A stretch of DNA of 64,000 nucleotides from Bacillota bacterium (lineage in GTDB: Bacteria > Bacillota > Clostridia > Acetivibrionales > DTU013). This document shows, in pieces, positions 7,307 to 52,841 of this stretch. Every line of letters starts with the position of its first letter. Position 1 is the stretch's first letter. Both the position numbers and the translations under genes were made by a program. The notes under the pieces were generated by a model. It made no database searches. It worked only from the letters and a program-made list of their open reading frames with translations, and was not told the origin of the DNA. Location of the stretch: positions 20,225-84,224 of the forward strand of contig JAEYOM010000123.1 in NCBI GenBank assembly GCA_023411715.1. Reading direction: 5' to 3'.

Positions 7307-7335
7307 AACAATCGGGCCTCTTTTCGATAATATGG

Positions 7336-7410
7336 TACCATCCAATTATAATTATACTGTATGAACAAGAGGAATAAACAACCAATTTGACAATATTGAT
7401 ACCATCCAAT
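7336..7410 (-). promoter_or_regulatory. direct repeat TACCATCCAAT x2, candidate MocR operator
   Basis: Identical 11-mers occur at 7336-7346 and 7400-7410, 64 bp start to start, just upstream of the regulator gene. B. subtilis GabR is known to bind ATACCA direct repeats. Confidence 0.4.
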
Positions 7411-7560
7411 ATGAAACTCCTATTTTTTTTGGCAAAAAAAATGCCACCGTAAAGGCAGTCCGTCGCAAAACAGTATTAAGTTAGATATGGAAGAATGGCA
7501 CAGCGTATAAACTTTGTCATTCTCTCGTCTACATTTTTGATACTTTCGGAAGGGTTATGA

Positions 7561-7589
7561 TTGTCTGGTAAAAAAATATGTTGTATAAT
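7561..7589 (+). promoter_or_regulatory. candidate sigma-A promoter of the Fic gene
   Basis: TTGTCT (7561-7566), then 17 nt, then TATAAT (7584-7589), about 105 nt upstream of the ATG. Confidence 0.35.
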
Positions 7590-7694
7590 ATTACCAATGA
7601 TGATGATTTGCAATATTTCCATCTCAATGTAAGCAGAATAGCAAGGGTAAATCCTGATATCTAAGCTGTAATTCATGAGGATAGGGGTAGAAAA

Positions 7695-9164: not shown

Positions 9165-9216
9165 CAGAAGCAGTACGCTTGCAACGAGGCATCATATACT
9201 TCCATGAAGTATATGG

Positions 9217-9264
9217 CCCACAAAACACTTTCCGCTTCACGGCGAAGTGTCTCGTGGGTTCTTT
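9217..9264. terminator. compound hairpin between the convergent fic and uvrB 3' ends
   Basis: CCCAC..ACACTT..CGC pairs with GCG..AAGTGT..GTGGG and is followed by TTCTTTG on the plus strand. A second perfect 10-bp hairpin lies at 9193-9215 (CATATACTTC/GAAGTATATG). Confidence 0.45.
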
Positions 9265-9272
9265 GAGTGAAC

Positions 9273-11255
<1,983 letters not shown>

Positions 11256-11501: not shown

Positions 11502-12869
11502 ATGAAAGTTGCAAAATTTGGCGGAACGTCACTGGCATCCGCCGATCAGATAAAGAAAGTATGCAACATTATCACATCGGACCCGGAGCGCAGGCTGATC
11601 GTAGTATCCGCTCCAGGCAAGCGTTTCAAAGAAGACATAAAAGTTACCGACATGCTCATAGCTTGTGCCAAAGCCGGTTTGGAAAATGGCGATGCGGAAA
11701 AAGAATTGCAAGCCGTAACAGAAAGATTTGCAAATATAGCTTCTGAGCTTGGGGTAAACGGAGGCATCGTTGAAACAATCTCGGCAGACCTCAGAAAGCG
11801 CGCAGAGAGCGATAAAACCGATAAAGGAAGGTATATGGACAGTCTGAAGGCAGCTGGTGAAGACAATTGCGCGAAGCTCGTCGCGGAATACCTCAAAAGC
11901 GCAGGTTTTGATGCGCGTTATGTAAATCCGAAGGATGCCGGACTGCTGCTCAGCGATGAATTCGGAAATGCGCAGGTCCTGCCCCAGTCGTACGAAAATC
12001 TGAGAGCTCTATCCGACTACTCCGGAATAACCATATTCCCCGGATTTTTCGGCTATTCGCTTTCCGGAGAGGTCGTGACGCTTCCCCGCGGCGGTTCAGA
12101 CATAACGGGCTCAATCGTTGCGGCGGCTGTGAATGCCGATCTATATGAAAACTTTACCGATGTCGATTGCGTGTACTCCGTAAATCCGAATCTGATAAAA
12201 TCTCCCGTTCCGATACATGAAGTAACATACAGGGAGATGCGTGAGCTTTCCTATGCCGGCTTCGGAGTATTTCACGAGGAGGCGCTCGTTCCGGTCTTTT
12301 ATAAAGGCGTGCCCGTCTGTATCAAGAATACGAACAATCCTTCCGCTCCCGGGACAACAATAGTAAAAGAGCGCCGCACAAACGGCTTCCCTGTAGTCGG
12401 AATCGCAAGCGACACAGGCTTTTGCTTCATATATATAAGCAAATACCTTATGAACCGGGAGGTCGGCTTCGGTCGAAAGATCCTCCAGATACTCGAGGAA
12501 GAACATATCTCCTTCGAACATATCCCCTCCGGAATAGATAATATGTCGATAATCCTGAAACAGGATATGATGGACGAATATAAGGAAAAGAAGATCACCG
12601 GGCGTATCAGGAGCGAACTGGCAGCCGATGATATCTCTGTCGTCAAGAATATAGCACTGGTCATGATTGTCGGGGAAGGCATGCGAAATACCCTTGGAAT
12701 AACCTCGAGAGCCTCCGCGGCGCTTGCCGGTGCAGGCATCAACCTTGAAATGATCAACCAGGGGCCTTCAGAGGTAAGCATGATGTTCGGAGTAAAGGCG
12801 GATGTTTGCAATAAGGCTGTCTGCGCACTTTATGACGAATTTTTCATAAAGCAGATGAAAGACGCATAA
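11502..12869 (+). CDS. aspartate kinase
   Basis: MKVAKFGGTSLASADQIKKV is the amino-acid kinase N-terminus. Further on are ...LPRGGSDITGS... and C-terminal ACT-like repeats. 455 aa. Confidence 0.9.
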   Translation: MKVAKFGGTSLASADQIKKVCNIITSDPERRLIVVSAPGKRFKEDIKVTDMLIACAKAGLENGDAEKELQAVTERFANIASELGVNGGIVETISADLRKRAESDKTDKGRYMDSLKAAGEDNCAKLVAEYLKSAGFDARYVNPKDAGLLLSDEFGNAQVLPQSYENLRALSDYSGITIFPGFFGYSLSGEVVTLPRGGSDITGSIVAAAVNADLYENFTDVDCVYSVNPNLIKSPVPIHEVTYREMRELSYAGFGVFHEEALVPVFYKGVPVCIKNTNNPSAPGTTIVKERRTNGFPVVGIASDTGFCFIYISKYLMNREVGFGRKILQILEEEHISFEHIPSGIDNMSIILKQDMMDEYKEKKITGRIRSELAADDISVVKNIALVMIVGEGMRNTLGITSRASAALAGAGINLEMINQGPSEVSMMFGVKADVCNKAVCALYDEFFIKQMKDA

Positions 12870-12881
12870 CTGAAACACAGG

Positions 12882-12909
12882 GAAACGCAGCGAACCGTCC
12901 CTGCGTTTC
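12882..12909. terminator. hairpin between convergent genes (putative bidirectional terminator)
   Basis: GAAACGCAG (12882-12890) pairs with CTGCGTTTC (12901-12909). The flanking T-runs are weak. Confidence 0.45.
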
Positions 12910-12919
12910 GTCCCTCTGT

Positions 12920-13666
12920 TTAATCCCTTTTTTTAGGCAACCGCTTTATCTTGTCGATTATCCTGTCCTTGAGAAATAGTCCCGTCAGGAACAATACCAG
13001 CGCGGCTACCGAAAGAATTATCACCGTCACATAGTTGCCTTTTTCAGTGCTGCTGCCTATGACAGAGGATGCAAAAAGCGCAGGCAGCCGGGCTATTGTG
13101 ATGATTATGAAGAAATGCAGCGGTTTTACCGGCGTGATGCCCGCAATGTAGGTAAGCATATCCTTTGGGATGCCAGGTATCAGGAACAGCAGGAACATAG
13201 CCGCTTCCGACTTGTCATCATTTATCATGAAATTGAATTTTTTCAAATGCTCTGGCGATACTAGCATTTTCACCAGAGGATAACCAAGCAGCCTTGCTAT
13301 GAAGAAAACCAGAACGGATCCGATAAGGATGCCCGTTATCGAATATAACGTTCCGAACCAGGTCCCGTAAATATACCCTCCGGCGATCTGGATCACTTCC
13401 CCGGGTATCGCCGCTACCAGGACCTGCAGTATCTGTATGCCTATAAACACCAGGACGCCCTTCCAGCCGTAAGAACCCAGCCTGTCGCTCAGGCTTCCGG
13501 GATCTCTCATCAATTTCGTCAGCTGCGGTCCGAATTTTATTGTGAAGTACGCCATAGCTCCAAGGAACAGAGCTATCAGAACGATGTACAGCGCTATCCT
13601 GCTTTTGCTTTTTCCGTCTTTTACAACAATATTGCTTCCGGTCTCCTTTCCTGCTTCATTACTCAA
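12920..13666 (-). CDS. TVP38/TMEM64 (DedA-related, SNARE-associated) family membrane protein
   Basis: 248 aa and multi-pass hydrophobic. The conserved stretch ...LVAAIPGEVIQIAGGYIYG... is typical of this family. Confidence 0.75.
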   Translation of the reverse strand: MSNEAGKETGSNIVVKDGKSKSRIALYIVLIALFLGAMAYFTIKFGPQLTKLMRDPGSLSDRLGSYGWKGVLVFIGIQILQVLVAAIPGEVIQIAGGYIYGTWFGTLYSITGILIGSVLVFFIARLLGYPLVKMLVSPEHLKKFNFMINDDKSEAAMFLLFLIPGIPKDMLTYIAGITPVKPLHFFIIITIARLPALFASSVIGSSTEKGNYVTVIILSVAALVLFLTGLFLKDRIIDKIKRLPKKRD

Positions 13667-13761
13667 TCCGGTTACCTCGTTTCAAATATATTCGCACGTA
13701 ATGTGTAGACTTGATTTATATTATTATTTACGAAGCAGTTCGGATTTTGTCTAAAAACCGT

Positions 13762-15951
13762 CTATCCCTCGAACTTCATTGTCACCTGCTTGTCCTCGCC
13801 GTCTTCAGCCCTGAAATAGCAGCCTACTGCGGGTATAGACCTCGTACGGTAATAATCGGGATCCTTGATGCCCGATTCCTCAAGAGTTTTAACAGCGCAC
13901 AGCCGGCTCCCCTTTTTCTCCTTCAGCACCTGCACTCCCTGCGAATCGCGCGTGGATTTGGGGTTTATGCAGGAGGTATCGAATATCAGCACCTTGTTTA
14001 TGCTGCTGTAGGCGACAAGTTCCGTATCCGCCGGAAGATAACGCATGTCGACCAGAGGTGAAAGGTTGGAATATGCATTTGCGAGCTTTTTCCTGTTTGT
14101 TTTTGTTGCATAGCTTCCCAGCTCGATTTTGGCGAACTTACCGCTTTCGAATGAAAATAACAGCCAGCCGGTATAATTATCTGTCGCGGCCATATAAATT
14201 ATTCTCTCGCCGTTTTCGAGCTGCAGCAGGTTTGTAAGATATTCTCCGAGCGCGCTTGCCTTGCAGTCCGGGATATCATACATCCTTAACTTGTAGACCG
14301 TCTGGCGGTCCGAGAACAGAAGCAGTTCCGCCTTGTTGTGCGTCTCTATTTCCTGTACTATCCTGTCATCATCCTTGAGCTTGTGCTCAGGGTTCGCGCG
14401 CAGTGAGACGAGGGCGATCTTCTTGAGATAGTTCTGCTCTGTAAGGAACAGCTTCAGGTTATAATCGTCGATAAGATGTTCTTCCGTAATTTCCTCGACA
14501 TGTGTTTCCGGTATGATCTCCGTCTTCCTCGGCTGGCCGTACTTCTTTGATACCTCGCCGAGCTGCCTGGCGATGAGCTTCCTTATTTTCCTTTCATCGC
14601 CGAGCAGTTCCTTCAGGTCGGCTATTTCCTTCTGCAGCGTATCGACTTCCCCGACCTTGTCCAGAATGTACTCGCGGTTGAGGTTGCGCAGCTTGATCTC
14701 TGCAATGAATTCCGCCTGCAGCTGGTCGATCCCGAAACCGTCCATCAGGTTAGGCACTACCTGGGCGTCGTGCTCGGTGTTCCGTATGATCGCAATAGCT
14801 TTATCGATATCGAGCAGTATCTTTCGAAGGCCAAGCAATAGATGGAGCTTATCCTCCTTCTTTCCGATATCGAACGCGGTCTGCCTTTTGATACAATTGA
14901 CCCTGAATATAAGCCATTCGCGCAGGATTTCCCGGATGCCCATGACCCTGGGGCTTCCATTTATCAGTATATTGAAATTACAGTTGAACGTATCCTGCAG
15001 CGCAGTCAGTTTAAACAGCTTGTTCATGATCTCGTCGGGATCCACGTTCTTACGTATGTCAAGCGTGATCTTCAATCCATCGATGTCGGTCTCGTCGCGA
15101 ACATCCGTTATGTCCCTGAGCCTGCCATTCTTCACAAGCTCTATGACTGAGTCGATTATTGCCTCGGAAGCAGTCGTATAGGGTATCTCATATATCTCTA
15201 TGCAGCTGTTCTGCTTGTCATATTTGTATTTTGCCCTGACCTTGAAGCCGCCTCTTCCTGTTTCATAAATGCCCCTTAATTCGCTTTCATTTAAGATCAG
15301 GCAGCCGCCGGTAGAAAAATCGGGCGCCTTTATGTACTGCATAAGGTCGGCATTCTCATCGCCTATATAAGCTATGGCTGCATCGCAGACTTCCTTAAGG
15401 TTGAAGCTGCAAACATTTGAGGCCATGCCTACCGCAATACCCTGGTTCGCATTGACCAGAACACTTGGGAAAGTGGCGGGAAACAGTGTAGGTTCCTTCA
15501 TCGTTCCATCGTAATTGTCGACAAAGTCCACTGTGTTTTTATCAAGATCGCGGAACAGCTCTTCGCATATCTTTTCAAGCTTTACCTCGGTATACCTGGA
15601 GGCTGCGTACTGCATGTCCCTCGAATACTGTCTGCCGAAGTTACCCTTGGAGTCTATCATTGGGTGAAGCAGCGCGCCGTTTCCCCTCGTCAGTCTGACC
15701 AATGTCTCATAGATGGCCTGATCGCCATGCGGATTCAGCTTCATTGTCTGTCCGACCACGTTGGCCGACTTCGTCTTAGGTCCGGTCAGCAGCCCCATTT
15801 TGTACATGGTATAAAGCAGCTTCCTGTGGGACGGCTTGAAACCGTCTATCTCCGGGATGGCCCGTGAAACGATGACGCTCATCGCATAAGGCATGAAATT
15901 TTGTTCAATCGTATCGGGTATTTTTTGCAATACCATATTTTTATCCGACAT
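13762..15951 (-). CDS. type IIA DNA topoisomerase subunit A (ParC/GyrA family; short C-terminal domain suggests ParC-like)
   Basis: ...AMSVIVSRAIPEIDGFKPSHRKLLYTM... and ...YAASRYTE... (catalytic Tyr region). 729 aa, immediately downstream of the B subunit. Confidence 0.9.
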   Translation of the reverse strand: MSDKNMVLQKIPDTIEQNFMPYAMSVIVSRAIPEIDGFKPSHRKLLYTMYKMGLLTGPKTKSANVVGQTMKLNPHGDQAIYETLVRLTRGNGALLHPMIDSKGNFGRQYSRDMQYAASRYTEVKLEKICEELFRDLDKNTVDFVDNYDGTMKEPTLFPATFPSVLVNANQGIAVGMASNVCSFNLKEVCDAAIAYIGDENADLMQYIKAPDFSTGGCLILNESELRGIYETGRGGFKVRAKYKYDKQNSCIEIYEIPYTTASEAIIDSVIELVKNGRLRDITDVRDETDIDGLKITLDIRKNVDPDEIMNKLFKLTALQDTFNCNFNILINGSPRVMGIREILREWLIFRVNCIKRQTAFDIGKKEDKLHLLLGLRKILLDIDKAIAIIRNTEHDAQVVPNLMDGFGIDQLQAEFIAEIKLRNLNREYILDKVGEVDTLQKEIADLKELLGDERKIRKLIARQLGEVSKKYGQPRKTEIIPETHVEEITEEHLIDDYNLKLFLTEQNYLKKIALVSLRANPEHKLKDDDRIVQEIETHNKAELLLFSDRQTVYKLRMYDIPDCKASALGEYLTNLLQLENGERIIYMAATDNYTGWLLFSFESGKFAKIELGSYATKTNRKKLANAYSNLSPLVDMRYLPADTELVAYSSINKVLIFDTSCINPKSTRDSQGVQVLKEKKGSRLCAVKTLEESGIKDPDYYRTRSIPAVGCYFRAEDGEDKQVTMKFEG

Positions 15952-28845: not shown

Positions 28846-28917
28846 CTTTTACCGGGCTTAATGCTTTTGCCGGGCTTAATTCTTTTGCCGGGCTCAATTC
28901 TTTTGCCGATCTTAATT
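28846..28917. repeat. 4 x 18-bp tandem repeat (CTTTTGCCGGGCTTAATT consensus) in the convergent intergenic gap
   Basis: The units lie at 28846-63, 28864-81, 28882-99 and 28900-17, with 1-3 substitutions each. The last unit contains the stop codon of the minus-strand lipoprotein gene. Confidence 0.95.
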
Positions 28918-29919
28918 TTTGTCGACCGTTATATCGCCCGTGCCGGATTTGATCTCTATATCAGCTCCGCCTCCGTTGACGTCCTGCACCAGCGAGTCGC
29001 CTACTAAGCCTTCGCCGTTACTGATGAGATTCCCGTCTATACTGCCGACTCCGGTCGATGCATCGATACTGAATTTCGAATCTCCCGGCAGTCTGAGTAT
29101 CATTTTCCCTACGCCGCTCTTTATCGTAAGGTGTGAAAGCTCTTTTATGTCTCCGTCTATGGATATATCGCCTTTTCCGTTTGTAAAGGTGCATTCATCG
29201 GTCAGCGAAACATTTTTCAGGCTGATATCGCCAACTCCGTCCGCAATCTCGGCTTTACCCTTCAAAGCAGCGATCGTTATATCGCCAACGCCGTCTGCGA
29301 TCTTGAATTCCTTAATATTTTCCGGCACTTTTATATCAAGATCCACCGATACGTTCATAGCCTTGTAATGAGCGGAAAGCCAGTGCCAGAAATCTTCCGT
29401 TTCGTCGTCCCTCACCTTTACGTTGACTGTAAGTTCGTCCCCTTTGGTCTCAGTTTTAACCAGGATCTGATCCATTATCTCATCTATATTTGTGCCGAGT
29501 CCCCTCACTTCTTTGCTGTAATGTATTTCCACCTTGTCTTTCGAAGCCTTCGACAGCTTTATAGCGCCGACCCCATTGGTTACAATGAGTTTACTCAGAT
29601 CTTTACCTTCAACCGTGAGATCATCGGAAGCGTTGCCCGTATCCTGTTTTCCCGAGCTTACTTTGTCTGAAACATTAACAGTGTCCTGATTCACGGAGCC
29701 TTTGTCGGAAGCATTTCCAGTATCCTGATTCCCGGAGCCTTTGTCGGAAGCATTTCCCGTATCCTGATTCACGGAGCCTTTGTCGGAAGCATTTCCCGTA
29801 TCCTGATTCACGGAGCTTGCTCCGTCCGAATGAGCTGTAGGTATATCAAGGTCAATACTGCAGCCTGCGAAAGAGATCATGGAAACAGCCAACAAAACAA
29901 CCAAAATTAACTTTTTCAT
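28912..29919 (-). CDS. lipoprotein with N-terminal Asp/Gly/Asn/Thr-rich 13-aa repeats and a DUF4097-like beta-repeat ('putative adhesin') domain
   Basis: The lipobox is MKKLILVVLLAVSMISFAGCS. Repeats (SVNQDTGNASDKG)n follow. The C-terminal part has recurring ...GVGDI.../...GKGDISI.../...GTGDITV... strands like the DUF4097 protein at 31000. Confidence 0.8.
   Translation of the reverse strand: MKKLILVVLLAVSMISFAGCSIDLDIPTAHSDGASSVNQDTGNASDKGSVNQDTGNASDKGSGNQDTGNASDKGSVNQDTVNVSDKVSSGKQDTGNASDDLTVEGKDLSKLIVTNGVGAIKLSKASKDKVEIHYSKEVRGLGTNIDEIMDQILVKTETKGDELTVNVKVRDDETEDFWHWLSAHYKAMNVSVDLDIKVPENIKEFKIADGVGDITIAALKGKAEIADGVGDISLKNVSLTDECTFTNGKGDISIDGDIKELSHLTIKSGVGKMILRLPGDSKFSIDASTGVGSIDGNLISNGEGLVGDSLVQDVNGGGADIEIKSGTGDITVDKN
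29622..29816 (-). repeat. about 5 x 39-bp tandem coding repeats
   Basis: GTATCCTGATTCACGGAGCCTTTGTCGGAAGCATTTCCC recurs nearly perfectly. It encodes the 13-aa units of the lipoprotein. Confidence 0.9.
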
Positions 29920-43646: not shown

Positions 43647-43907
43647 TTAATTTTTTGTTTCAGGTTCGAACTCGATAATTTCGTCTTCAACTTCTTTTTT
43701 TGCATTATCGTCGATATTAAGTACTTGCTTGGCCTTTTTCTTAGCTCTGCGCCAAACAATGCCTGCTGCTGCACCAACTGCAATCACAATGCCGGCAACA
43801 GCCTGTATTGTGTACGTCATAATTGATGGATCGATATACGCCAAAGCATTGCTCTCAAACAGAAACAGTAAACAAACGGCATAAAATAATACACGAAGTT
43901 TTTTCAT
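43647..43907 (-). CDS. small secreted/membrane protein of unknown function (86 aa)
   Basis: AGGAG precedes the ATG at 43907. The signal peptide is MKKLRVLFYAVCLLFLFESNALA. It is followed by YIDPS, a TM helix, the basic cluster WRRAKKKAK and an acidic tail. This is the last gene of the phosphonate operon. Confidence 0.55.
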   Translation of the reverse strand: MKKLRVLFYAVCLLFLFESNALAYIDPSIMTYTIQAVAGIVIAVGAAAGIVWRRAKKKAKQVLNIDDNAKKEVEDEIIEFEPETKN

Positions 43908-44017
43908 GGACCTTGCTCCTAACCTTATAGCTATATTTATCACAGATATTTTGTCGAAAGTATTTGCTCGTATAATATTACTCCAATTCAAATAGCTTTG
44001 CAACTATATACTTCCAA

Positions 44018-45157
44018 TTATAAAGCCTGCCGCAAAATATCAATTACGTCCGCTTTTGTAAATATTATTGGGTTATTGTCCATCCTTCCCTGAGTAAAAG
44101 TTTTCTCTGCTATAAAATCCAGATCTCTTTCAGTAATTCCAAAAGTTGATAACTTAAGGTCCATAACAGGTACCGATACATCTTTCAGCCATTTATTAAA
44201 TTCGTCTTTATTACCAAATATAGAATATATCCGACTAATTTCCGGTACTGCTGATTCGTTATGCTCTGCAACCTGCGCAATCGTAAGTGCGACTGCCAGG
44301 CCATGCTCTACTCCAAAGCACAGCGTTAGCGGATAAGATATGGAATGGCTTGCTGTAGTTCTGGTAATTGAAAAAGCCAGACCAGCAAGCAGCGAAGCCA
44401 GGCACATTCCCTGTCTCAGCTTTAAGTTACTACTATCTTTCAATACCTCAGGCAGGTATTCCTTAACGTAATCGATTGCTGATATTGCAATTGCCTGTGA
44501 TAACGGAGTTTTGCTCCTGGACCAAAAAGACTCCATTGCATGTGAAAGTGCATCCAATCCCGTAGAAAGTGTCAATCTGCCCGTCATCGTCGCAGTAAAT
44601 TCAGGAACCAGTAACGCCGCCTTCGGAAATATCTGAACACAATCCACTGATAGCTTTTCCTTATTTTCAAAATCCCAGACAGTTGCCCATTTTGTAACTT
44701 CTGAACCCGTTCCGGATGTGGTCGGCAAGGCAATAATATCGATAAAATAGTGTCCTAAAAGGTATTCCTTATTTTTTATGGCGTTGTATACTGATTGCTT
44801 CGACAGCATATCTGGCGGTATCAAAGAATACAAGGCACTAATGGCTTTTGCCAGATCAATACAGCTTCCGCCTCCTATTGCAATGATCTGATCAATTTGT
44901 ACTCCCTGCAGGTATTTCAAGCTTTCAAAGACGTCCGAAACCGAAGGGTTGGCCGGAATGCTATTTAAGTGGATAAGCTTACCGGACTTTTTCGTCTCTG
45001 ACAACCATTTATCCATTCCAGTTCTGTTCAGCATACCTTCACTAGCCAGTAGAAGGGTTTTATCCGTTCCTGATACCGCCTCATTTATATACTCTACAGC
45101 TTCTCCCCGAGTCAATATAGAGATTTCGACCGGTGAAAACGGCATATATTGTTTCAT
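44018..45157 (-). CDS. iron-containing (group III) alcohol dehydrogenase; by context a phosphonoacetaldehyde reductase
   Basis: ...IIAIGGGSCIDLAKA... is the Fe-ADH GGGS motif. Conserved His residues appear in ...LSHAMESFWS... and ...ASHSISYPLT.... It lies immediately downstream of pepM/ppd. Confidence 0.75.
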   Translation of the reverse strand: MKQYMPFSPVEISILTRGEAVEYINEAVSGTDKTLLLASEGMLNRTGMDKWLSETKKSGKLIHLNSIPANPSVSDVFESLKYLQGVQIDQIIAIGGGSCIDLAKAISALYSLIPPDMLSKQSVYNAIKNKEYLLGHYFIDIIALPTTSGTGSEVTKWATVWDFENKEKLSVDCVQIFPKAALLVPEFTATMTGRLTLSTGLDALSHAMESFWSRSKTPLSQAIAISAIDYVKEYLPEVLKDSSNLKLRQGMCLASLLAGLAFSITRTTASHSISYPLTLCFGVEHGLAVALTIAQVAEHNESAVPEISRIYSIFGNKDEFNKWLKDVSVPVMDLKLSTFGITERDLDFIAEKTFTQGRMDNNPIIFTKADVIDILRQAL

Positions 45158-45172
45158 TTCCTTCCTCCGCTA

Positions 45173-46465
45173 TTACTCGTTAGGAATCAATGTTAGTATT
45201 TTTTTGATTGGCATGCAGTATTCATCTGCTTCCAAAGATCTCGAGTTCGCAAGGATGGTTTCTGCAACCTTCTGCATCGCAGGGAACGCGCTTCTTAAAA
45301 GATGATTGGCATGTATAACAATATTTGCACCAGCTGCTGCCAGCTCTTCTTCAGTAATGCTGTTATACATTGTCGGAACTACGACTATCGGGATCAATTG
45401 ATTTGTCTTGCGAAATCTCCTGCAAAACTCCAAGATTTCGTCAGACTCTTTCCTGCATGAATGGATCATGATGCCGTCTACCCCGGCATCTACATAAGCG
45501 AGACATCTCTTAAGCGCATCTTCTATTCCCTTATCCAATATAAGGCTTTCACATCTGGCGATGATCATGAAATCCTTTGTTTTCAAAGCATTTTTACCAG
45601 CCCTGATCTTTTCACAAAAGTTTTCAATAGTTTCCTGTACTTGCTGAGCCTCGGTACCGAATAGAGAATTCTTTTTCAAACCTGTTTTGTCTTCGATTAT
45701 TACTGCCGAAACACCTATTCTTTCAAGTGTTCTTATATTGAAAATAAAATGCTCGGTAAGCCCACCTGTATCCCCGTCAAGTATAATGGGCTTTGTTGTT
45801 ACCTCCATGATTTCTTCCAGAGTATTGATCCTTGATGTCATGTCGACCAATTCTATATCAGGTTTACCTTTCGCCGTCGAATCGCAAAGGCTGGAGACCC
45901 AAATGGCGTCGAATTGCTTTATACCTTTTGGAGTCTCAACCTTGGTTTGTTCCACTATCAAACCTGTTAATCCATTGTGCGCTTCAAGCACGGAAAGACA
46001 TGGCTTATATTGCAGCAGCTTTTTTAACCTTGAACGACGGTTTTCAGGCATGTAAAGTTTCTGATCCAGGCTGCTCAGGGTTTCCTCCGTAGGGGTATGG
46101 GTATAAGGAAATTCAACCAGTTTACCCCCCCAGCCTCTTAAAACTTCAATTACTCTTTCTCGTATTCCGGCCTGATAACCCGTTATCCAATCATCCCCAT
46201 GTACAACAATATCCGGTTTTAACTGGTTCAGAACATCATCATACTCCAATTTGTCCTGAATCACCACATTTGACACACCTTTTATGTTTTGATACATTTG
46301 TATACGCTCATCCAACGGAATCAGGGGGTAGCGTTTGAATGTGGCAATCACTTCATCTGTCAGCACCCCGACAGTGAGTTCGCCCAGTTTTGAAGCGGCT
46401 TGTATGATATTCATATGGCCGTTATGGATGATATCCGTGCTGAAACACATATATACTTTTCCCAT
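45173..46465 (-). CDS. pepM: bifunctional cytidylyltransferase-like domain + phosphoenolpyruvate phosphomutase
   Basis: The N-terminus is MGKVYMCFSTDIIHNGHMNII (HxGH nucleotidyltransferase motif, TagD/ECT-like). The C-terminal domain has ...VLEAHNGLTGLIVEQ... and ...IWVSSLCDSTAKGKPDIE..., an ICL/PEP-mutase fold with the PepM-type EAHNGL motif. Confidence 0.85.
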   Translation of the reverse strand: MGKVYMCFSTDIIHNGHMNIIQAASKLGELTVGVLTDEVIATFKRYPLIPLDERIQMYQNIKGVSNVVIQDKLEYDDVLNQLKPDIVVHGDDWITGYQAGIRERVIEVLRGWGGKLVEFPYTHTPTEETLSSLDQKLYMPENRRSRLKKLLQYKPCLSVLEAHNGLTGLIVEQTKVETPKGIKQFDAIWVSSLCDSTAKGKPDIELVDMTSRINTLEEIMEVTTKPIILDGDTGGLTEHFIFNIRTLERIGVSAVIIEDKTGLKKNSLFGTEAQQVQETIENFCEKIRAGKNALKTKDFMIIARCESLILDKGIEDALKRCLAYVDAGVDGIMIHSCRKESDEILEFCRRFRKTNQLIPIVVVPTMYNSITEEELAAAGANIVIHANHLLRSAFPAMQKVAETILANSRSLEADEYCMPIKKILTLIPNE

Positions 46466-47196
46466 TACTCGTCCCCCATATCAAAAAGTTTTTGGAATCT
46501 TTCTGAAATAACCTTCAGGTCTTGCAAATTATCTATTTCATTACATAGCCTTCGGTTCAACTCCATCGGGTATAACCCTATTTGGTCACTGATCCCGTTA
46601 AGGGCATTTTCAGCATAAACTTTTGTAATACCAGCTTTGCAAAAAGCCTCAATCTCATTCATCCATAAAGCGAAATCTGTTTTGTTCAACTTATATGCCG
46701 GCTGGCAAGCTTCGCAGTCATCTCCGAAAAACTCTATTCCTACCGCTTTGATCTTATTGTTATTTATTTTTGCTTTAAAATCCTTTTCCGGCAGAAGAAG
46801 CAATCTATCGACCGCCACCACACTGCTTTTTGAATATAACAGGTCCGTAATAACAGATGGTTCCAATACAAGATCACCATGCAAAAGTAAAATATCATCA
46901 TTTAAAAACTCCTTTGCAAGGTACATTGAATAAATATAATTGGTATCTTTATAAACAGGGTTATTTATGAATGTAATATCTAAACCGTAGGAACCAGTCA
47001 GTGCATGTCCCTTTAGCAATTCCTCAAATGGGCCTGTTGTGATTACGACTTTTTTGATCCCGTTTCTTCGAATCAGTTCCAACTGCCAGCTGATAATGCT
47101 GTAACCATTTCCGATCGGACACATACACTTGGTTTTATCTTCAGTCAGCTTACCCATCCTGCTTCCTAGCCCGGAGTTTAAAAGCAATGCTTTCAC
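46465..47196 (-). CDS. LicC/MobA-like nucleotidyltransferase (probable phospho(no)-alcohol cytidylyltransferase)
   Basis: MKALLLNSGLGSRMGKLTEDKTKCM matches the G-x-G-(T/S)-R nucleotide-binding signature. 243 aa. Confidence 0.75.
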   Translation of the reverse strand: MKALLLNSGLGSRMGKLTEDKTKCMCPIGNGYSIISWQLELIRRNGIKKVVITTGPFEELLKGHALTGSYGLDITFINNPVYKDTNYIYSMYLAKEFLNDDILLLHGDLVLEPSVITDLLYSKSSVVAVDRLLLLPEKDFKAKINNNKIKAVGIEFFGDDCEACQPAYKLNKTDFALWMNEIEAFCKAGITKVYAENALNGISDQIGLYPMELNRRLCNEIDNLQDLKVISERFQKLFDMGDE

Positions 47197-47200
47197 GAGG

Positions 47201-48337
47201 TTATTTCCCCTCTCTGATAAATCTCATAAGTGCATCTTTATTTTCCTTAGGCGTTGTAGTCGGCCTGCCTAAATCATCCCTTGAGCCGAGAGCCACCAGT
47301 ATTTCTATAAAGCATATCCCCTGAACTTCCATGGCAGATCTGAGCACTTTCCGGAGTTCTGTCTGATCCGAAGCCCTGAAGCAGTTATTATATCCTGCTG
47401 CTTTGGCAAGTTCACAAAAATTGGTATTACCATATGCAACCGGCATACCGCCGACACTTTCATGTGCGCCATTATTGAAAACTATATGAACAAGGTTTTT
47501 GCATCCCGTTTTTGCCAAAATAACCGTACTACCCAAATGCATTATTGCGGCGCCATCGCCTTCTATACACCACACGCGCCTGTCCGGTGCTTCCATCGCT
47601 ATCCCCATGGCAATCATGGATGCATGTCCCATGGACCCTACAGTAAGAAAATCTTTTTCATGCCCCAGTTTCAAAGCCTCTCGGAGCTCAAACAATTCAC
47701 GCGAGGTCTTACCTGTAGTGGATACGAAAATATCCGTATCATCTGCAATTGTTATAATTGTCCTAAGTGCATCTTCCCGCTTCATCAAGTAATTATTTCC
47801 ATAATGAGGCGCGGCATCTGTCTCCAATGCACCCTTTCGAACGATGAAAGCTATACTCTTCCCCTCGGAAATAGTCGTCCTGCTCTCTTGGACAAATTTT
47901 AAAAATTCTTCCTGTTCCGTTTCCTTCGAAAGAATAAGGTATTTGATTTTCATTAATTCAAGAAGTTCTATCGTGACTTCGCCTTGAAAAGCATGCTGAG
48001 GCTCATCCTTGATTCCGGGTTCACCGCGCCAGCCTACTACGAAAACACAGGGAATTCCATATACCTTCTCATCCAATAAAGATGCCACAGGATTGATGAT
48101 ATTACCGATCCCGCTATTCTGAAGATATACCAAAGCAGGTCTTCCGGTGGCTATATAATGTCCGGAAGCCAGTCCGACTGCAGCACCTTCGTTAGCCGTA
48201 ACGACATGCCTATCACCCAGTTTATATTTCTCAAATAGAGTATTGCATAAAGCCTTAAGCTGGGAGTCCGGAACACCTGCATAATAATCTACTCCCAAGT
48301 ATTTTTGTAGAGTCTCCAAAAGCCAATCAATTTTCAT
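47201..48337 (-). CDS. ppd: phosphonopyruvate decarboxylase (ThDP-dependent)
   Basis: 378 aa. The ThDP motif is ...IEGDGAAIMHLGSTVILAKTGCKNLVHIVFNNGAHES.... Its size and its position beside pepM are characteristic. Confidence 0.85.
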   Translation of the reverse strand: MKIDWLLETLQKYLGVDYYAGVPDSQLKALCNTLFEKYKLGDRHVVTANEGAAVGLASGHYIATGRPALVYLQNSGIGNIINPVASLLDEKVYGIPCVFVVGWRGEPGIKDEPQHAFQGEVTIELLELMKIKYLILSKETEQEEFLKFVQESRTTISEGKSIAFIVRKGALETDAAPHYGNNYLMKREDALRTIITIADDTDIFVSTTGKTSRELFELREALKLGHEKDFLTVGSMGHASMIAMGIAMEAPDRRVWCIEGDGAAIMHLGSTVILAKTGCKNLVHIVFNNGAHESVGGMPVAYGNTNFCELAKAAGYNNCFRASDQTELRKVLRSAMEVQGICFIEILVALGSRDDLGRPTTTPKENKDALMRFIREGK

Positions 48338-50225
48338 TCCTATGCTCCCCTATTTCCTTTAATCTTCCAATAAGATATTTCCCGCCAACTTCTCCGCTGC
48401 TGCCAAAATTCGCAATATATTTTTCTACTATTGCAGTTATCTCTTCTCTATATTTTTCTGAAGAACTAAGCAGCCTTCTAATTTTATCCGGCAAATTTTC
48501 TAGATTGTCAGGTTCCATTTGAATACCGATCTTATCTCGGAGCAGAATTTCCAGCGGCTTTACAGAAAGTCTGTCGTACTCCGGATTGTTTATTTTGGGC
48601 GGTGTATTGATAAACACCGACGGTTTTTTTGTCACAAATGAAAACTCATATGCTGTACCTGACCAGTCAGTTATTACAACATCGGAATCAAATATGGAAT
48701 TATTGCTCGTAAAATCAAGTTCAAAACTCAGGTCTCCTCCGCCATATTCCCTATATCTGTCTACAATGGCATCCATCCGGTTGCCATATCGTTTTACATA
48801 CTCGGGATGCGGACGTACAACAACCTCAAAGCCTTGTCCCAAAAGAGCCTTAAGCAACTCATCAATGCAGCTGTCCAAAATATTATCCTGCTGCCATGAA
48901 GGCGCAACCAATATTTTTTTATGTAACCGGATCGACTCTCTCATCCTGCTATAACTCTCATATAGTTTCTCCAATTGTCCGTATCCTACGGCAATAAGCT
49001 TTTTCTCACGCAAATCATAGAGCTTTTCAGTCTCACGGATTTCGTCGAATTGGAATTCACCGACACAAAAGATGGTATCATAGTAGTTCAATGCTCCTTT
49101 ACGCAGCACCATATGAGTACTTAAGGGGTAATGGAACATATAAACGTATTCGATATCCTTTTTGACGTATGAACGCTTAATGTGAAAATTATTTAAGTCC
49201 GGCATGGTCATGACAACCATGTCAGCATCCATCTTCATCATCAAGGTGATAAAGCGCTTTTCACCAATGTAGTAGGGCTTGATACGGGGTTGGATCTTGG
49301 ATAGCTCAAATATTTGGTCGCCTGGATCGCTGGTAATGTAGTGTATCGTAACATTCGACCTTCGCAATATATCATTTATAACATTTTCGAAATATTTATA
49401 AAATCCGCTCTTTTCCGAATAGAATACCAAATGCTTGTTGACGATTGAAAAGAAACGTTTATAATCCGCTTTTTCGCGCTTCCTGTTGGGATCTTTCTCG
49501 TGCCAATTTTTCTTGCCAGCACTGCCTATACTGTTCAATTCCTTTAAAGTATACTTGCTCTTTTCCAGATCGTCATAGTCGACATACTTCCGAGGCGGTA
49601 TTATCGCATTTAAAAAAAGTTGCTGTAAAATGGTGAAAAGATTACTGCATATCCAATACAGGCCAACGCCGACTGAAACGAACATTCCAAGTAACAGAGA
49701 AATACCGACTGAAACCGCCATCGTGGAGATCTGGCTGATTCTATTTTGTTCTCTCTGCAATGGATTGATCCTGTCCTGGATGGTAGAAAGTATAAACGCT
49801 GATATACCGGCTGTCAGGGGCATAAGTAACGAAATTCCCTTCTCCTCGATAGGAATCAGTGCAAGGCTTGTACCCCCAAGGCTTTCATTGACAATACGAA
49901 TTAGTGCAATCAATAGAATGATTTGAATAAACATAGGTATAACACTGGCAAAAGCGTGATACTTTTCTCGTTTGTATAAACCATGCTGTTCCTCTGCTAT
50001 ACTGTCCCCGTCACCAAAGTATTTTACCATTATTCGATTCAACTCAGGCATCAGGTGAACCATTTTAATACTGTTTCTATGAACCCAGATAGATAGCGGA
50101 AGTAAAATTATTTTGGTTAACAGGGTGAACAGGATTATTGTTAAAGAATAATCATGTAGCATATCATAGCATACTTGCATTATATAACCAAGTATTTTGG
50201 TCAGTATTGATATTAGTGAATTCAT
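48327..50225 (-). CDS. fusion protein: YidC/Oxa1-type membrane insertase domain + TagB/TagF-type (CDP-alcohol) phosphotransferase domain
   Basis: Residues 1 to about 215 carry ...SLTIILFTLLTKIILLPLSIWVHRNSIKM...IPMFIQIILLIAL...VGVGLYWICSNLFTILQQLFLN..., which are YidC hallmarks. Residues from about 270 to 632 carry ...KILVAPSWQQ..., ...VVVRPHPEY... and ...DVVITDWSGTAYEFSFVTKKPSVFINTP..., a TagF-like Glyphos_transf pattern. It is one uninterrupted 632-aa ORF. Confidence 0.8.
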   Translation of the reverse strand: MNSLISILTKILGYIMQVCYDMLHDYSLTIILFTLLTKIILLPLSIWVHRNSIKMVHLMPELNRIMVKYFGDGDSIAEEQHGLYKREKYHAFASVIPMFIQIILLIALIRIVNESLGGTSLALIPIEEKGISLLMPLTAGISAFILSTIQDRINPLQREQNRISQISTMAVSVGISLLLGMFVSVGVGLYWICSNLFTILQQLFLNAIIPPRKYVDYDDLEKSKYTLKELNSIGSAGKKNWHEKDPNRKREKADYKRFFSIVNKHLVFYSEKSGFYKYFENVINDILRRSNVTIHYITSDPGDQIFELSKIQPRIKPYYIGEKRFITLMMKMDADMVVMTMPDLNNFHIKRSYVKKDIEYVYMFHYPLSTHMVLRKGALNYYDTIFCVGEFQFDEIRETEKLYDLREKKLIAVGYGQLEKLYESYSRMRESIRLHKKILVAPSWQQDNILDSCIDELLKALLGQGFEVVVRPHPEYVKRYGNRMDAIVDRYREYGGGDLSFELDFTSNNSIFDSDVVITDWSGTAYEFSFVTKKPSVFINTPPKINNPEYDRLSVKPLEILLRDKIGIQMEPDNLENLPDKIRRLLSSSEKYREEITAIVEKYIANFGSSGEVGGKYLIGRLKEIGEHRNEN

Positions 50226-50337
50226 TGTTGGTATTACACACCTTTTATATTATTCGAATAATGTATTATTCAGAAAGCATCCCCGTCGATCCCACCTTAT
50301 CGAGGATAAACGTAATTATCTTAATTAATATTATATT

Positions 50338-51240
50338 TTAGCTTATTTTATTAGTTGCCGGATCATAGTGTACGGAATATGTCGCTTTTTGAAATGTGCC
50401 CGCATCTTCAATAATGACCGTGCATGTTGAATTTTTTAACTTTTCTTGGGGAATAGTCACTTTGAAGCCACTGCTAAAATACTTTTGATTTTTAAAATTT
50501 TGTGATACATCAGGTCTTTCATAGCTTATTGTATCATATGTTTGAATTTCGCCATCGTTATTCTTGAATTCCAAATAAACATTTTGGAACAGTGTCGAGT
50601 GATTATTCACATAGGCCCATCCGTCCAAAATAACATTTCCATCAGCTTGAGTCGGGGCTATAGCAAACCAGACATTATCAGATTTATTTGTATCATCAAT
50701 ATTTTTAACCTGACCTGGAGTATATTCTCTTAAGCCTTTATTGTCCTTTATATATTTCCTTCCGGTTCTTGCCAAACCACTGCTGTAATCATTTTCCCAA
50801 TCATAAATAAGTAATTCATAAATACCATTTTTCATATTCAATGTTGAGAATTGTGTGCCGAACCCGTTATTATCGCCTTTGACCGTTAGCTCTGGGAAAA
50901 CTGATTTCAATTGGAATGAGGTCAGTTTGGCCGGGGCTATATAAGAATCATTTGAGCCTCTGAAAATAATACTTATTTTTTTATCAGAATTCAGATCTGC
51001 TGTTTCACAAAATGCCCAACCATTACAAGCAAAATCTTCTGCCATGTTTTCATATGCTTTTGAAAATCCTATGGCTTGATAAGCATCTGTATTTATAATC
51101 AAAGAACTTATCTCAGTTTTTTCCAGTTTTGCACTGCCTGATAATAGTATGATTACGTCGTTTGCATAAATTAAATAAATTATAAATAAAATCAGAGAAG
51201 CTATATAAATTATACTCCTCTTTTTAGATTTAATATTCAT
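50338..51240 (-). CDS. membrane-anchored protein of unknown function with two related beta-rich modules
   Basis: An N-terminal TM helix (IIYIASLILFIIYLIY). Two modules start ...CNGWAFCE... and ...LDGWAYVN.... ATGA overlap with the upstream gene. Confidence 0.5.
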   Translation of the reverse strand: MNIKSKKRSIIYIASLILFIIYLIYANDVIILLSGSAKLEKTEISSLIINTDAYQAIGFSKAYENMAEDFACNGWAFCETADLNSDKKISIIFRGSNDSYIAPAKLTSFQLKSVFPELTVKGDNNGFGTQFSTLNMKNGIYELLIYDWENDYSSGLARTGRKYIKDNKGLREYTPGQVKNIDDTNKSDNVWFAIAPTQADGNVILDGWAYVNNHSTLFQNVYLEFKNNDGEIQTYDTISYERPDVSQNFKNQKYFSSGFKVTIPQEKLKNSTCTVIIEDAGTFQKATYSVHYDPATNKIS

Positions 51241-52652
51241 TGGTTCGGTACCTCCACAGTTGGGAGATTAATGTTGAATAGCTTGCCAATCACTAACCTT
51301 GCCGTATTAACACCCGATTGATCTTTTATCTCATCGAACCTTTCATCCATATAATAAACTGCATTAAGAATATTACGCGCGTCAATATTTTCTACAATTG
51401 AATTACTGTTATTATCTTGAGTCCATCTTGCACTATGATCAGATTGTAAAATTATAATTGATTTAGGATCGTTTTTTATAACGTGCTTGATTGTTTCATC
51501 AGCGAGCTTCGTAATATACTTGTATTGATTCAAGTAATAATTATGATCTTTCCAGTCGCTGAGGCCAGCGAAATCAGGCATTTTACCATTTTCATCGAAT
51601 ACAAATGGTGCATGCGGGCTTTCGATGTGAGCGTATGTTAAAACTGGAACATCGCTATTTTCATTTGTTTCCTGAAGTTGATTGAAAGCATTTATTACAT
51701 TCTGACGATTTGCTAATTCATCACTTACACCCAGGAAGGGATAAAACATAGTATTTTCAAGCAATATTTTTGTAAAATCACCATAGCGGGCATTTACTTT
51801 ATTTTTTGCCCCTCCCACCACTCCATTCCATGTTATAAGGGATGACATATTGACAATTTCGTAGCCGTGATTGCTGAATAAACGGAACATCTCTGGATTT
51901 TGTCCGTAAGATAACCGTTTAGCTTGAATCATATTGTCTGTGACGACATAATTCAAATTGACAATATTCGTTGTAATTGTTATAGTATCGATACTTTCAT
52001 TATGACTTCCTAATGAAACGTTGAATCCCTCATTTTCCAGTGTCTGAGCAAAACCCGAATTATCATACACATAATATTTTTTAATGGAGTTAAAACTTGA
52101 ATATTCATCGAGTATTATATAATATACATTTGGATATAGTTTTTTTTCTGCAAACTTGGTATCGATTTTTGTTTTGTTATCAACCAATTTTGTTTTTTCT
52201 ATAATCGTTGGCATAGCAATAAGAAAATTAAGCAGAATAAGTGCACAAAATGCAATAGTAGTTACCATGTTAAATATTTTAGCTATTTCTACATTCATTT
52301 TTTTGTAAATCAGATAAGCAAAATGCAAAAATACAACGATCAATATCGGAGCTATATGCCAATATTTTAAAGGCATAAATAACTTAACGACTTTTTCGAT
52401 CAATACATAATTCAGAAACAATAACATAAATATGTTAACGATTAAGGCTGTTTTATTTGTATCTCTTACAAATAAGTAAAATATAAAACTTAGGATAATA
52501 GCTATACCAATAAAAATTATAAGAGGGTAAAGCATTTCATTTGCTGAAGTTTCGCCCACATTTTGGGTGTATAGAAAGATAATTGGGAAAACGGATAAAG
52601 CAAAAACAGAAAAGGTAGGGATAAGAATATCTTTTTTCTTATTGGTATACAA
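51237..52652 (-). CDS. LtaS/sulfatase-like (alkaline-phosphatase superfamily) polytopic membrane protein
   Basis: About 5 N-terminal TM helices, then an extracytoplasmic domain with ...YYIILDEYSS..., ...HIESPHAPF... and ...ILQSDHSAR... (metal/nucleophile-type motifs). The family assignment rests on pattern only. Confidence 0.55.
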   Translation of the reverse strand: MYTNKKKDILIPTFSVFALSVFPIIFLYTQNVGETSANEMLYPLIIFIGIAIILSFIFYLFVRDTNKTALIVNIFMLLFLNYVLIEKVVKLFMPLKYWHIAPILIVVFLHFAYLIYKKMNVEIAKIFNMVTTIAFCALILLNFLIAMPTIIEKTKLVDNKTKIDTKFAEKKLYPNVYYIILDEYSSFNSIKKYYVYDNSGFAQTLENEGFNVSLGSHNESIDTITITTNIVNLNYVVTDNMIQAKRLSYGQNPEMFRLFSNHGYEIVNMSSLITWNGVVGGAKNKVNARYGDFTKILLENTMFYPFLGVSDELANRQNVINAFNQLQETNENSDVPVLTYAHIESPHAPFVFDENGKMPDFAGLSDWKDHNYYLNQYKYITKLADETIKHVIKNDPKSIIILQSDHSARWTQDNNSNSIVENIDARNILNAVYYMDERFDEIKDQSGVNTARLVIGKLFNINLPTVEVPNQ

Positions 52653-52841
52653 TTATATTACTCCTTTGCTTCTAATCTAAAATTATTCGAACTCAGCACC
52701 ATGAGTAAATCATTTTATTAGTATAGTATCTTTTCATACCCCCTTAGTCAACCTATTATGTATTATTTTATTTCTACTATTATATGCACTTATATTATGC
52801 TAGAATATAAAATAGTCTTGATTTAAGGGAGGTAATATGAA

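Follow-up and report, generated by a model that had tools for sequence, protein, structure and literature searches.

We analysed, in silico throughout, a 64,000-nucleotide stretch of contig JAEYOM010000123.1 (positions 20,225 to 84,224; assembly GCA_023411715.1) from a Bacillota bacterium, which we call the window. Eight minus-strand genes at 43647-52652, lying within a rhamnose-glycan locus of the ATP-binding cassette (ABC) transporter type, are predicted to make a cytidine monophosphate (CMP)-activated phosphonate and to place it on the cell envelope. The family scans were run on those open reading frames (ORFs), 150 aa or longer, that were taken as genes; together they span most of the 64-kb window. 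An earlier note made from the sequence alone had listed eight minus-strand ORFs here, and all are present at those coordinates; the intergenic spacing along the operon is -4, 112, -11, 4, -1, 15 and 110 nt, and because the same gene set recurs syntenically in many genomes, the arrangement is not a chance one. The genes are:

51237-52652, minus strand: EptA/MCR-1/LtaS-like membrane phosphotransferase (471 aa), with five N-terminal transmembrane (TM) helices and an extracytoplasmic alkaline-phosphatase-superfamily domain
50338-51240, minus strand: N-terminally anchored 300-aa protein with internally repeated extracytoplasmic domains
48327-50225, minus strand: YidC-like five-TM domain (aa ~1-235) joined to a cytoplasmic TagF-like GT-B domain (aa ~246-632)
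47201-48337, minus strand: phosphonopyruvate decarboxylase (Ppd; TIGR03297, TPP_enzyme_N and TPP_enzyme_C)
46465-47196, minus strand: LicC/PntC-like nucleotidyltransferase, 243 aa (NTP_transferase/NTP_transf_3)
45173-46465, minus strand: Fom1-type cytidylyltransferase domain (aa 4-125, HNGH) fused to phosphoenolpyruvate (PEP) mutase (PepM; aa 143-430, EDKTGLKKNS)
44018-45157, minus strand: PhpC-type Fe/Zn alcohol dehydrogenase (ADH), predicted to reduce phosphonoacetaldehyde to 2-hydroxyethylphosphonate (HEP)
43647-43907, minus strand: 86-aa conserved membrane protein, a constant partner of the YidC::TagF fusion (ATG start at 43907)

Pfam and NCBIfam profiles matched PepM, Ppd, the Fe-ADH, the nucleotidyltransferases, 60KD_IMP and Glyphos_transf, in line with the domain calls of the earlier note. 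PepM scores 410.1 bits against TIGR02320 (cut-off 319.55), as opposed to 141.7 for phosphonopyruvate hydrolase and 91.3 for prpB; its EDKTGLKKNS motif at aa 258-267 fits EDKxxxxxNS, a motif specific to PEP mutases (Ppm) (PMC6697681), and its PDB matches are the PEP mutases 5unc and 1m1b (1e-42 to 1e-37). It is thus a PEP mutase, as had been claimed, and not an isocitrate or methylisocitrate lyase. The HxGH cytidylyltransferase domain described as fused to it is likewise present: HNGH lies at aa 14, CTP_transf_like (PF01467) matches aa 11-102 (1.7e-16, 61.1 bits; gathering threshold, GA, 21), and aa 4-125 match the Fom1 cytidylyltransferase 5x3d at E = 5.8e-38, compared with 4e-4 for TagD (1coz). 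Fom1 turns HEP and cytidine triphosphate (CTP) into CMP-HEP, according to the account of Cho 2017 given in PMC6697681. Since a cassette of the 2-aminoethylphosphonate (AEP) type, in locus L068, also has a cytidylyltransferase::PepM fusion, the fusion alone does not prove that its substrate is HEP.

Ppd exceeds its equivalog cut-off (TIGR03297, 458.2 bits against 312.5) and contains both thiamine pyrophosphate domains (PF02776 and PF02775), which settles that assignment in favour of the earlier call. The second nucleotidyltransferase, called LicC-like, also holds: the 243-aa protein matches PF12804 above GA (31.2 bits; GA 27) and PF00483 at 36.8 bits, and the structures LicC 1jyk (7.4e-12) and PntC-AEPT 6pd1 (5.2e-7), with only the N-terminal ~120 aa aligned. 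In many related loci it is joined to the cytidylyltransferase::PepM protein as a ~670-aa triple fusion. One such fusion lies at 11829-13898 of locus L008, with no Ppd or ADH gene within the flank. The 243-aa enzyme may, instead of or besides the Fom1-type domain, be the one that cytidylylates HEP; a two-nucleotidyltransferase pattern was likewise recorded in oral anaerobes by Rice et al. (PMC6697681).

The Fe-ADH named in the earlier note belongs to that family, and its best NCBIfam match is TIGR03405 (PhpC/PsrA type) at 240.9 bits, 60 bits over the next family. A 2026 study of PhpC (PMC13576164) gives Asp191, His195, His260 and His274 as metal ligands and Lys157, Thr256, Tyr264 and Arg349 as HEP-binding residues, Tyr264 being Phe in sulfoacetaldehyde reductases. 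In the window ADH, K168, D202, H206, T267, H271, Y275 and H285 correspond, each shifted by a constant +11, to PhpC K157, D191, H195, T256, H260, Y264 and H274, and the PhpC signature is found in 25 of 25 PepM- and Ppd-linked ADHs of related loci. We fetched 85 such loci, leaving 82 distinct ones after the removal of three duplicates; PepM is encoded in only 34 of the 82. Among those with both PepM and Ppd, 25 have an ADH with the PhpC signature, 3 have an AEP transaminase, none has both and 2 have neither; in the last two the contigs end near the cassette, and the gene may lie off the contig. Cassette content therefore tracks the head group, which strengthens the assignment of HEP in the window.

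The scanned window ORFs of at least 150 aa include no class-V (AEP-type) aminotransferase and none of the tailoring enzymes of the Fom3, Fom4 and HEPD types (radical-SAM methyltransferase, epoxidase and HEP dioxygenase); the earlier note had claimed the lack of a transaminase next to pepM/ppd and the lack of tailoring enzymes. These results bear on a different product, either AEP or another derivative made by a transaminase encoded elsewhere, or a free bioactive small molecule reached through early fosfomycin-like steps. No other surface phosphonate is nearly as common as AEP (56% of neighbourhoods; PMC8942020), the LicC/PntC-like family includes the AEP-specific PntC (PMC6697681), and fosfomycin biosynthesis opens with Fom1-like and FomC-like enzymes; however, the ADH conserved in the operon has the PhpC signature and is mutually exclusive with the AEP transaminase in related cassettes, the enzymes that either outcome would call for are missing from the scanned ORFs, and all the neighbours are envelope-assembly genes, so that we regard this alternative as very improbable. 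On the route to HEP, PEP mutase would convert PEP to phosphonopyruvate, Ppd would convert this to phosphonoacetaldehyde, the PhpC-type ADH would reduce it to HEP, and the PepM-fused Fom1-type domain would combine HEP with CTP to give CMP-HEP. This predicted sequence, essentially the one put forward earlier, is well supported by family scores, motifs and the Fom1 match. CMP-HEP is likewise a well-supported prediction for the activated donor made by the operon, because the profile checks pass, the window has no AEP transaminase, and ADH and AEP transaminase exclude each other.

To the YidC::TagF-like fusion both 60KD_IMP and Glyphos_transf match above GA, which bears out its original description. 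In the YidC part, PF02096 (60KD_IMP) covers aa 26-206 at 109.3 bits (GA 35) and TIGR03592 reaches 91 bits (cut-off 84.3); YidC2 (PDB 3wo7) matches at 3e-11, and K38, invariant in 54 sequences, aligns with the groove Arg of Bacillus halodurans YidC2. In the TagF part, PF04464 (Glyphos_transf) matches aa 400-540 at 29.9 bits (GA 22.1). An AlphaFold2 (AF2) model of the fusion has a mean predicted local distance difference test score (pLDDT) of 87.1, and the best Foldseek match of its C-terminal domain is TagF 3l7k_D (7.5e-10, TMt 0.57). Within that domain H365 (FHYPLSTH) and H473 (RPHPEY) are invariant and are candidate counterparts of the catalytic histidines of Staphylococcus epidermidis TagF, H444 and H584. 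YidC topology places the TagF-like domain in the cytoplasm, and we propose that the fusion is a CMP-HEP:acceptor hydroxyethylphosphonyl transferase. It is probably a single-addition transferase and not a polymerase, since the AEP- and choline-type groups that come from sister cassettes are not polymerisable. We also considered poly-HEP, for which a TagF-type polymerase would build a phosphonate chain resembling teichoic acid; this is unlikely given that AEP and choline head groups have no hydroxyl to extend. The literature that we searched contains no paper that joins YidC with TagF or a glycerophosphotransferase in such a fusion, or that links one to phosphonates. Locus L050 (Anaerotruncus sp. 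G3) carries two divergent YidC::TagF copies (628 and 631 aa, at ~6796 and ~10001).

Three further proteins complete the operon, and for each of them the earlier description needed revision. The 471-aa protein had been called LtaS/sulfatase-like. It has no Pfam (PF00884 at E ≤ 0.01) or NCBIfam match itself; the label is supported by PF00884 in ~40% of its homologues, by profile matches to sulfatase 6s21 (5e-6) and EptC (0.069), and by its AF2 model (pLDDT 91.8; helices spanning aa 3-157), for which the best Foldseek matches are full-length MCR-1 (9nww), EptC (6a82) and EptA (5fgn), followed by sulfatases and LtaS. Its predicted metal and nucleophile residues are D182, T223, H347 and D405-H406; among homologues D182, H347 and D405 are invariant, and T223 and H406 are kept in at least 90%. 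The protein contains no sulfatase C/S-x-P-x-R motif.

The 300-aa protein is anchored, as had been stated, and has no match in Pfam, NCBIfam or PDB sequence searches, but it belongs to the machine of this subfamily as a conserved accessory component: loci L005, L014, L016, L036, L040, L042 and L051 encode it together with the 471-aa enzyme, and the proteins P0253 and P0262 have it fused to the N terminus of YidC::TagF. The 86-aa product has an exact match on record, and the mechanical ORF 43647-44003 (118 aa, TTG start) overstates its gene. Its near-invariant consensus comprises a signal-peptide-like helix ending AxA, the motif YIDPSVMTY, a single TM helix and a cytoplasmic, basic/acidic tail, WRRAKKKV..KLGIDENAKKEVE. 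The idea of a small secreted protein must therefore give way to that of a membrane protein with a signal peptide-like helix, a TM helix and a cytoplasmic tail, which is a conserved part of the machine and has a homologue in 77 of the 85 loci.

Close homologues of the YidC::TagF-like fusion number in the thousands, and the fusion occurs in 450 species-representative genomes, mostly gut and rumen Clostridia. The nearest relatives of the window protein (74-79% identity) are in metagenome-assembled genomes (MAGs) of Bacillota and Oscillospiraceae, and the carriers include cultured strains (Lachnospiraceae bacterium LC2019, locus L026; Angelakisella massiliensis Marseille-P3217, locus L040; and Anaerotruncus sp. 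G3(2012), locus L050). A sulfatase-family ORF is found in 63 of the 85 loci and ends <150 nt upstream of the fusion in ~35 of them. When the TagF-like domain alone was searched against 1.84 billion cluster representatives, 2170 clusters were retrieved; among the best 150 of these, which we inspected, 54 have a YidC domain and 96 are standalone proteins of ~386 aa. Within the same best 150, 16 of the 54 YidC-bearing clusters are triple fusions with a sulfatase-type module, which comes first in eight of them and last in the other eight. Either order makes sense topologically, since the sulfatase-type module ends outside, where YidC begins, and TagF ends inside, where the sulfatase-type TM region begins. 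In two loci (L084 and L085) the sulfatase-type protein, YidC::TagF and the small protein form bare triads amid unrelated housekeeping genes, with no donor genes. The fusions in both orders, the constant 86-aa partner and the bare triads together argue for one coupled process, and the YidC::TagF, EptA/LtaS-like, 300-aa and 86-aa proteins appear, from this genomic pattern, to form a conserved envelope-decoration machine.

The same survey bears on a simpler arrangement, in which the TagF-like domain decorates the undecaprenyl-linked polysaccharide directly in the cytoplasm before ABC export, YidC is only an anchor, and the EptA/LtaS-like enzyme acts independently in another modification, for which a common phospholipid is the source, as when GacH takes glycerol-phosphate from phosphatidylglycerol. 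The usual substrates of TagF-family enzymes are lipid-linked polymers, on which they work at the cytoplasmic face; the locus has an ABC transporter, so the entire glycan would be built inside the cell; the 96 standalone relatives do without YidC; and ~20% of loci with full flanks have no nearby sulfatase-type gene. Against these points stand the repeated fusions of sulfatase-type modules to YidC::TagF in both orders, the constancy of the 86-aa protein and the occurrence of bare triads far from glycan genes. Direct cytoplasmic decoration is in our judgement unlikely, although it is the most serious competitor to the coupled process.

The overall explanation that we favour, with a probability of roughly 0.62, is that the CMP-HEP cassette feeds the four-protein machine, giving a hydroxyethylphosphonyl ester on a cell-envelope polymer. 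Under this model the TagF-like GT-B domain, tethered to the membrane through its YidC-type partner, would use CMP-HEP at the cytoplasmic face to charge a membrane-bound acceptor with the phosphonyl group; the groove of the YidC-type domain would carry the head group to the outer face; and the EptA/LtaS-like enzyme would pass it to the polymer via a Thr-linked intermediate, with the ester as the predicted end product. We prefer such a relay because EptA, MCR-1, LtaS and GacH draw their head groups from membrane lipids and because YidC-type insertases scramble lipids (PMC11047089).

In this genome, the rhamnose-containing polysaccharide of the flanking locus is the most plausible acceptor. The relay has a parallel in the LtaS-like GacH, which decorates streptococcal rhamnose polysaccharide outside the cell (bioRxiv 10.1101/337519). 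The bare triads elsewhere make a lipid or a lipoteichoic acid (LTA)-type acceptor possible as well, and with it an end product that is a phosphonolipid or a lipid-anchored, LTA-like polymer bearing HEP and not the polysaccharide of the flanking locus. Consistent with such a product are the housekeeping contexts of L084 and L085, which have no glycan genes, the work of the EptA/LtaS family with membrane lipids, and the earlier placing of Selenomonas pepM clusters with multiple sulfatases in a phosphonolipid group (PMC8942020). In contrast, the module lies beside Bac_transf and glycosyltransferase genes in the window and in its closest relatives (L001/L004, L006 and L044), and the 300-aa partner, with its repeated domains, suggests recognition of a polymer. 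We therefore consider a lipid end product distinctly improbable and retain the polysaccharide ester.

The machine is generic and not phosphonate-specific, because the same fusion adjoins differing donor cassettes or none; the phosphonate genes are a plug-in cassette, of which the window has the HEP version. Other donor genes adjoining YidC::TagF are PepM-Ppd with a nucleotidyltransferase::AEP-transaminase, a helix-turn-helix (HTH)-nucleotidyltransferase::choline-kinase (LicC/LicA-like), a nucleotidyltransferase::Aminotran_1_2 and a PPDK-like protein with a nucleotidyltransferase. The choline-kinase type is represented by an HTH-NTP_transf_3-choline kinase fusion at 12246-14027 of L074, which suggests a phosphocholine version of the machine with a TagF-like rather than a LicD-type transferase. 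Fusions of ~600 aa of the Aminotran_1_2 type lie by YidC::TagF in L061 (11945-13756), L076 (12829-14691) and L041 (8550-10355), all loci without PepM; as a speculation, they may make a cytidine diphosphate (CDP)-amino-alcohol donor by decarboxylating a cytidylylated phospho-amino acid. At 3346-7059 of L049, a PPDK_N/PEP-utilizer protein (775 aa) and a nucleotidyltransferase stand beside the fusion. Directly upstream of the sulfatase-type gene in the HEP-type loci L001 (4062-6917) and L002 (4084-6987) are genes for a GHMP kinase, a SIS isomerase, an NTP_transferase and an HAD phosphatase, a GDP-heptose-type set which hints that the decorated polymer there is a heptose-containing glycan. Clostridia-like fusions (49-54% identity) also occur under the labels Caulobacteraceae, Planctomycetia, Methanocorpusculum, Victivallales, Alistipes and Eggerthellaceae (L044, L045, L047, L068, L080 and L083), as a result of either contamination in MAG binning or horizontal transfer.

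A more far-reaching proposal, which we offer tentatively and hold to be possible but doubtful, is that YidC::TagF, the EptA/LtaS-like enzyme and the 86-aa protein (with the 300-aa protein here) constitute a previously unrecognised trans-membrane head-group relay. In its general form, the TagF-like domain would load CMP- or CDP-activated HEP, AEP, phosphocholine or amino-alcohol phosphate onto a membrane carrier; a YidC paralogue devoted to this task, and no longer to protein insertion, would flip the head group via its hydrophilic groove; and the EptA/LtaS-like enzyme would install it on envelope polymers outside the cell. The 86-aa protein might itself be the carrier, by analogy with the microprotein DltX, which is the carrier in the Dlt system.

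Several observations weigh against the favoured explanation. The ADH, at 240.9 bits, falls below the TIGR03405 equivalog cut-off of 423.7, and its residue mapping is a constant offset and not a true alignment, with the equivalent of Arg349 displaced by two residues (R358). The Pfam match of the TagF-like domain is partial (profile positions 150-293 of 367), its Foldseek TM score is 0.57, and a 23-sequence profile of the domain, like phmmer, found no TagF among PDB sequences. Two nucleotidyltransferases are conserved, and the model leaves the second without a role. The machine is also found outside glycan loci in other genomes, and a nearby sulfatase-type gene is missing from ~20% of the loci with full flanks. 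The lipid relay, the role of YidC, which is perhaps a mere anchor, and that of the 86-aa protein are read from architecture; the C-P compound, CMP-HEP and the modified glycan are all predictions, with support that is wholly computational.

The region that surrounds the operon, at 40676-63815, is an ABC-transporter-dependent, rhamnose-type cell-wall polysaccharide cluster. Its flanking genes encode a Bac_transf priming transferase, four GT2 glycosyltransferases, a PglD-like acetyltransferase, a DegT aminotransferase, a 610-aa methyltransferase (Methyltransf_24), an Acyl_transf_3 protein, an ABC-2 exporter pair (permease and ATPase) and RmlB- and RmlD-like enzymes. In organisation the cluster resembles streptococcal and enterococcal rhamnopolysaccharide loci. 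The GC content of the surface-glycan genes is 0.32-0.44, compared with 0.46 in the housekeeping left part of the window; within the operon, the genes of the 471-aa and 300-aa proteins have 0.32-0.33 and the donor genes 0.38-0.44. In the closest relative of the donor genes, L001/L004 (PepM 88% and YidC::TagF 79% identity), a single 1001-aa sulfatase-type protein at 6993-9998 stands where the window has the 471-aa and 300-aa genes (50338-52652). The locus is thus a mosaic, in which, as the GC contrast and the different partner in L001/L004 together argue, the extracytoplasmic partner has been swapped by recombination.

Upstream of the operon lies one further feature:

52653-52841, no strand assigned: divergent AT-rich intergenic region, with the operon on one side and the plus-strand Acyl_transf_3 gene on the other

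It is likely to be the operon's promoter region. Promoter-like matches on the minus strand occur at 52681-52652, 52709-52682 and 52751-52723 (consensus only), and the promoter and terminator consensus scans showed no excess of matches relative to shuffled sequence. Another promoter-like match, extended by TG, falls at 44062-44034, within the 3' end of the ADH gene. The remainder of the window holds housekeeping genes, among them those for UvrA/B, a ParC/E-like topoisomerase, aspartokinase and an Fe-only hydrogenase, an enzyme typical of anaerobes. A 489-aa Fic-domain protein is encoded at 7695-9164, between aminotransferase/MocR-type genes and uvrB, and a 335-aa ORF at 28912-29919 has no Pfam match.

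The donor chemistry is less novel than the earlier note had implied. CTP_transf_like (PF01467)::PepM fusions make up 23.6% of all Ppm (PMC6697681), and Ppm-Ppd-PhpC (HEP-type) neighbourhoods make up 8.5% of the ppm neighbourhoods surveyed (PMC8942020). Phosphonyl tailoring steps beyond CMP-activation, on the other hand, were called 'enigmatic' by Rice et al. in 2019 (PMC6697681), and the novelty appears to lie in the coupling of a known donor to a modular machine of YidC::TagF, an EptA-like enzyme and a microprotein, a combination that is apparently undescribed. The locus links a textbook HEP-donor cassette with a defined, conserved and widespread candidate transfer machine. If the relay is true, it would supply the missing 'Pnt' transfer step for surface phosphonates and a general decoration pathway of gut Clostridia. 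The finding points to hydrolysis-resistant C-P groups on the envelopes of many gut commensals, a trait that would be relevant to phage receptors, host lectins, antibodies and gut phosphorus cycling, and the fusion suggests a non-canonical job for a YidC paralogue. Since cultured carriers exist, the question of transfer becomes experimentally tractable.

Among known systems, the donor cassette is closest in its chemistry to Fom1 and FomC of the fosfomycin pathway of Streptomyces wedmorensis, in which a PF01467 domain likewise lies N-terminal to PEP mutase, an Fe-ADH converts phosphonoacetaldehyde to HEP, and CMP-HEP is the activated intermediate (PMC6697681). Unlike that pathway, the window has no Fom3, Fom4 or FomD-type tailoring genes, has an extra LicC-like nucleotidyltransferase and stands in an envelope-assembly context; CMP-HEP is predicted to donate its group here, whereas in fosfomycin biosynthesis it is a transient handle for methylation. 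The Pnt clusters with PntC in Treponema denticola, Atopobium rimae and Olsenella uli resemble the window in activating a phosphonate by cytidylylation for surface tailoring and in having a Ppm-fused and a separate nucleotidyltransferase, the separate one with a LicC-like fold. Their product is CMP-AEP, and they are depicted together with LicD-like phosphotransferases or glycosyltransferases (PMC6697681), in contrast to the HEP predicted here and to a transferase that is a YidC::TagF fusion with an EptA/LtaS-like partner. The phosphonoglycan of Stackebrandtia nassauensis provides a precedent for HEP made via Ppm-Ppd-PhpC and attached, in that case, to an exopolysaccharide (PMC8942020), although that organism, unlike the one in the window, is an actinobacterium. 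According to PMC11448209, which offers no analysis of it, the MIBiG 'phosphonoglycans' cluster BGC0000806 is widespread in the gut metagenomes of mammals.

The transfer machine, in turn, shares with the CDP-glycerol glycerophosphotransferases TagF and TagB a GT-B fold, a PF04464 match and, as predicted, a CMP-linked donor used at the cytoplasmic membrane face; it differs from them in that its domain is very divergent, gives no profile-level TagF match and is fused to YidC, and in that sister cassettes supply non-polymerisable donors. Its extracytoplasmic partner has the five TM helices, the alkaline-phosphatase-type domain and the Asp/Thr/His/Asp-His pattern of EptA, MCR-1 and EptC and of LtaS and GacH. 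Unlike those family members, which take their head group from bulk phospholipids, it is linked, and sometimes fused, to a cytoplasmic nucleotide-donor transferase and YidC, which implies a dedicated supply of the donor.

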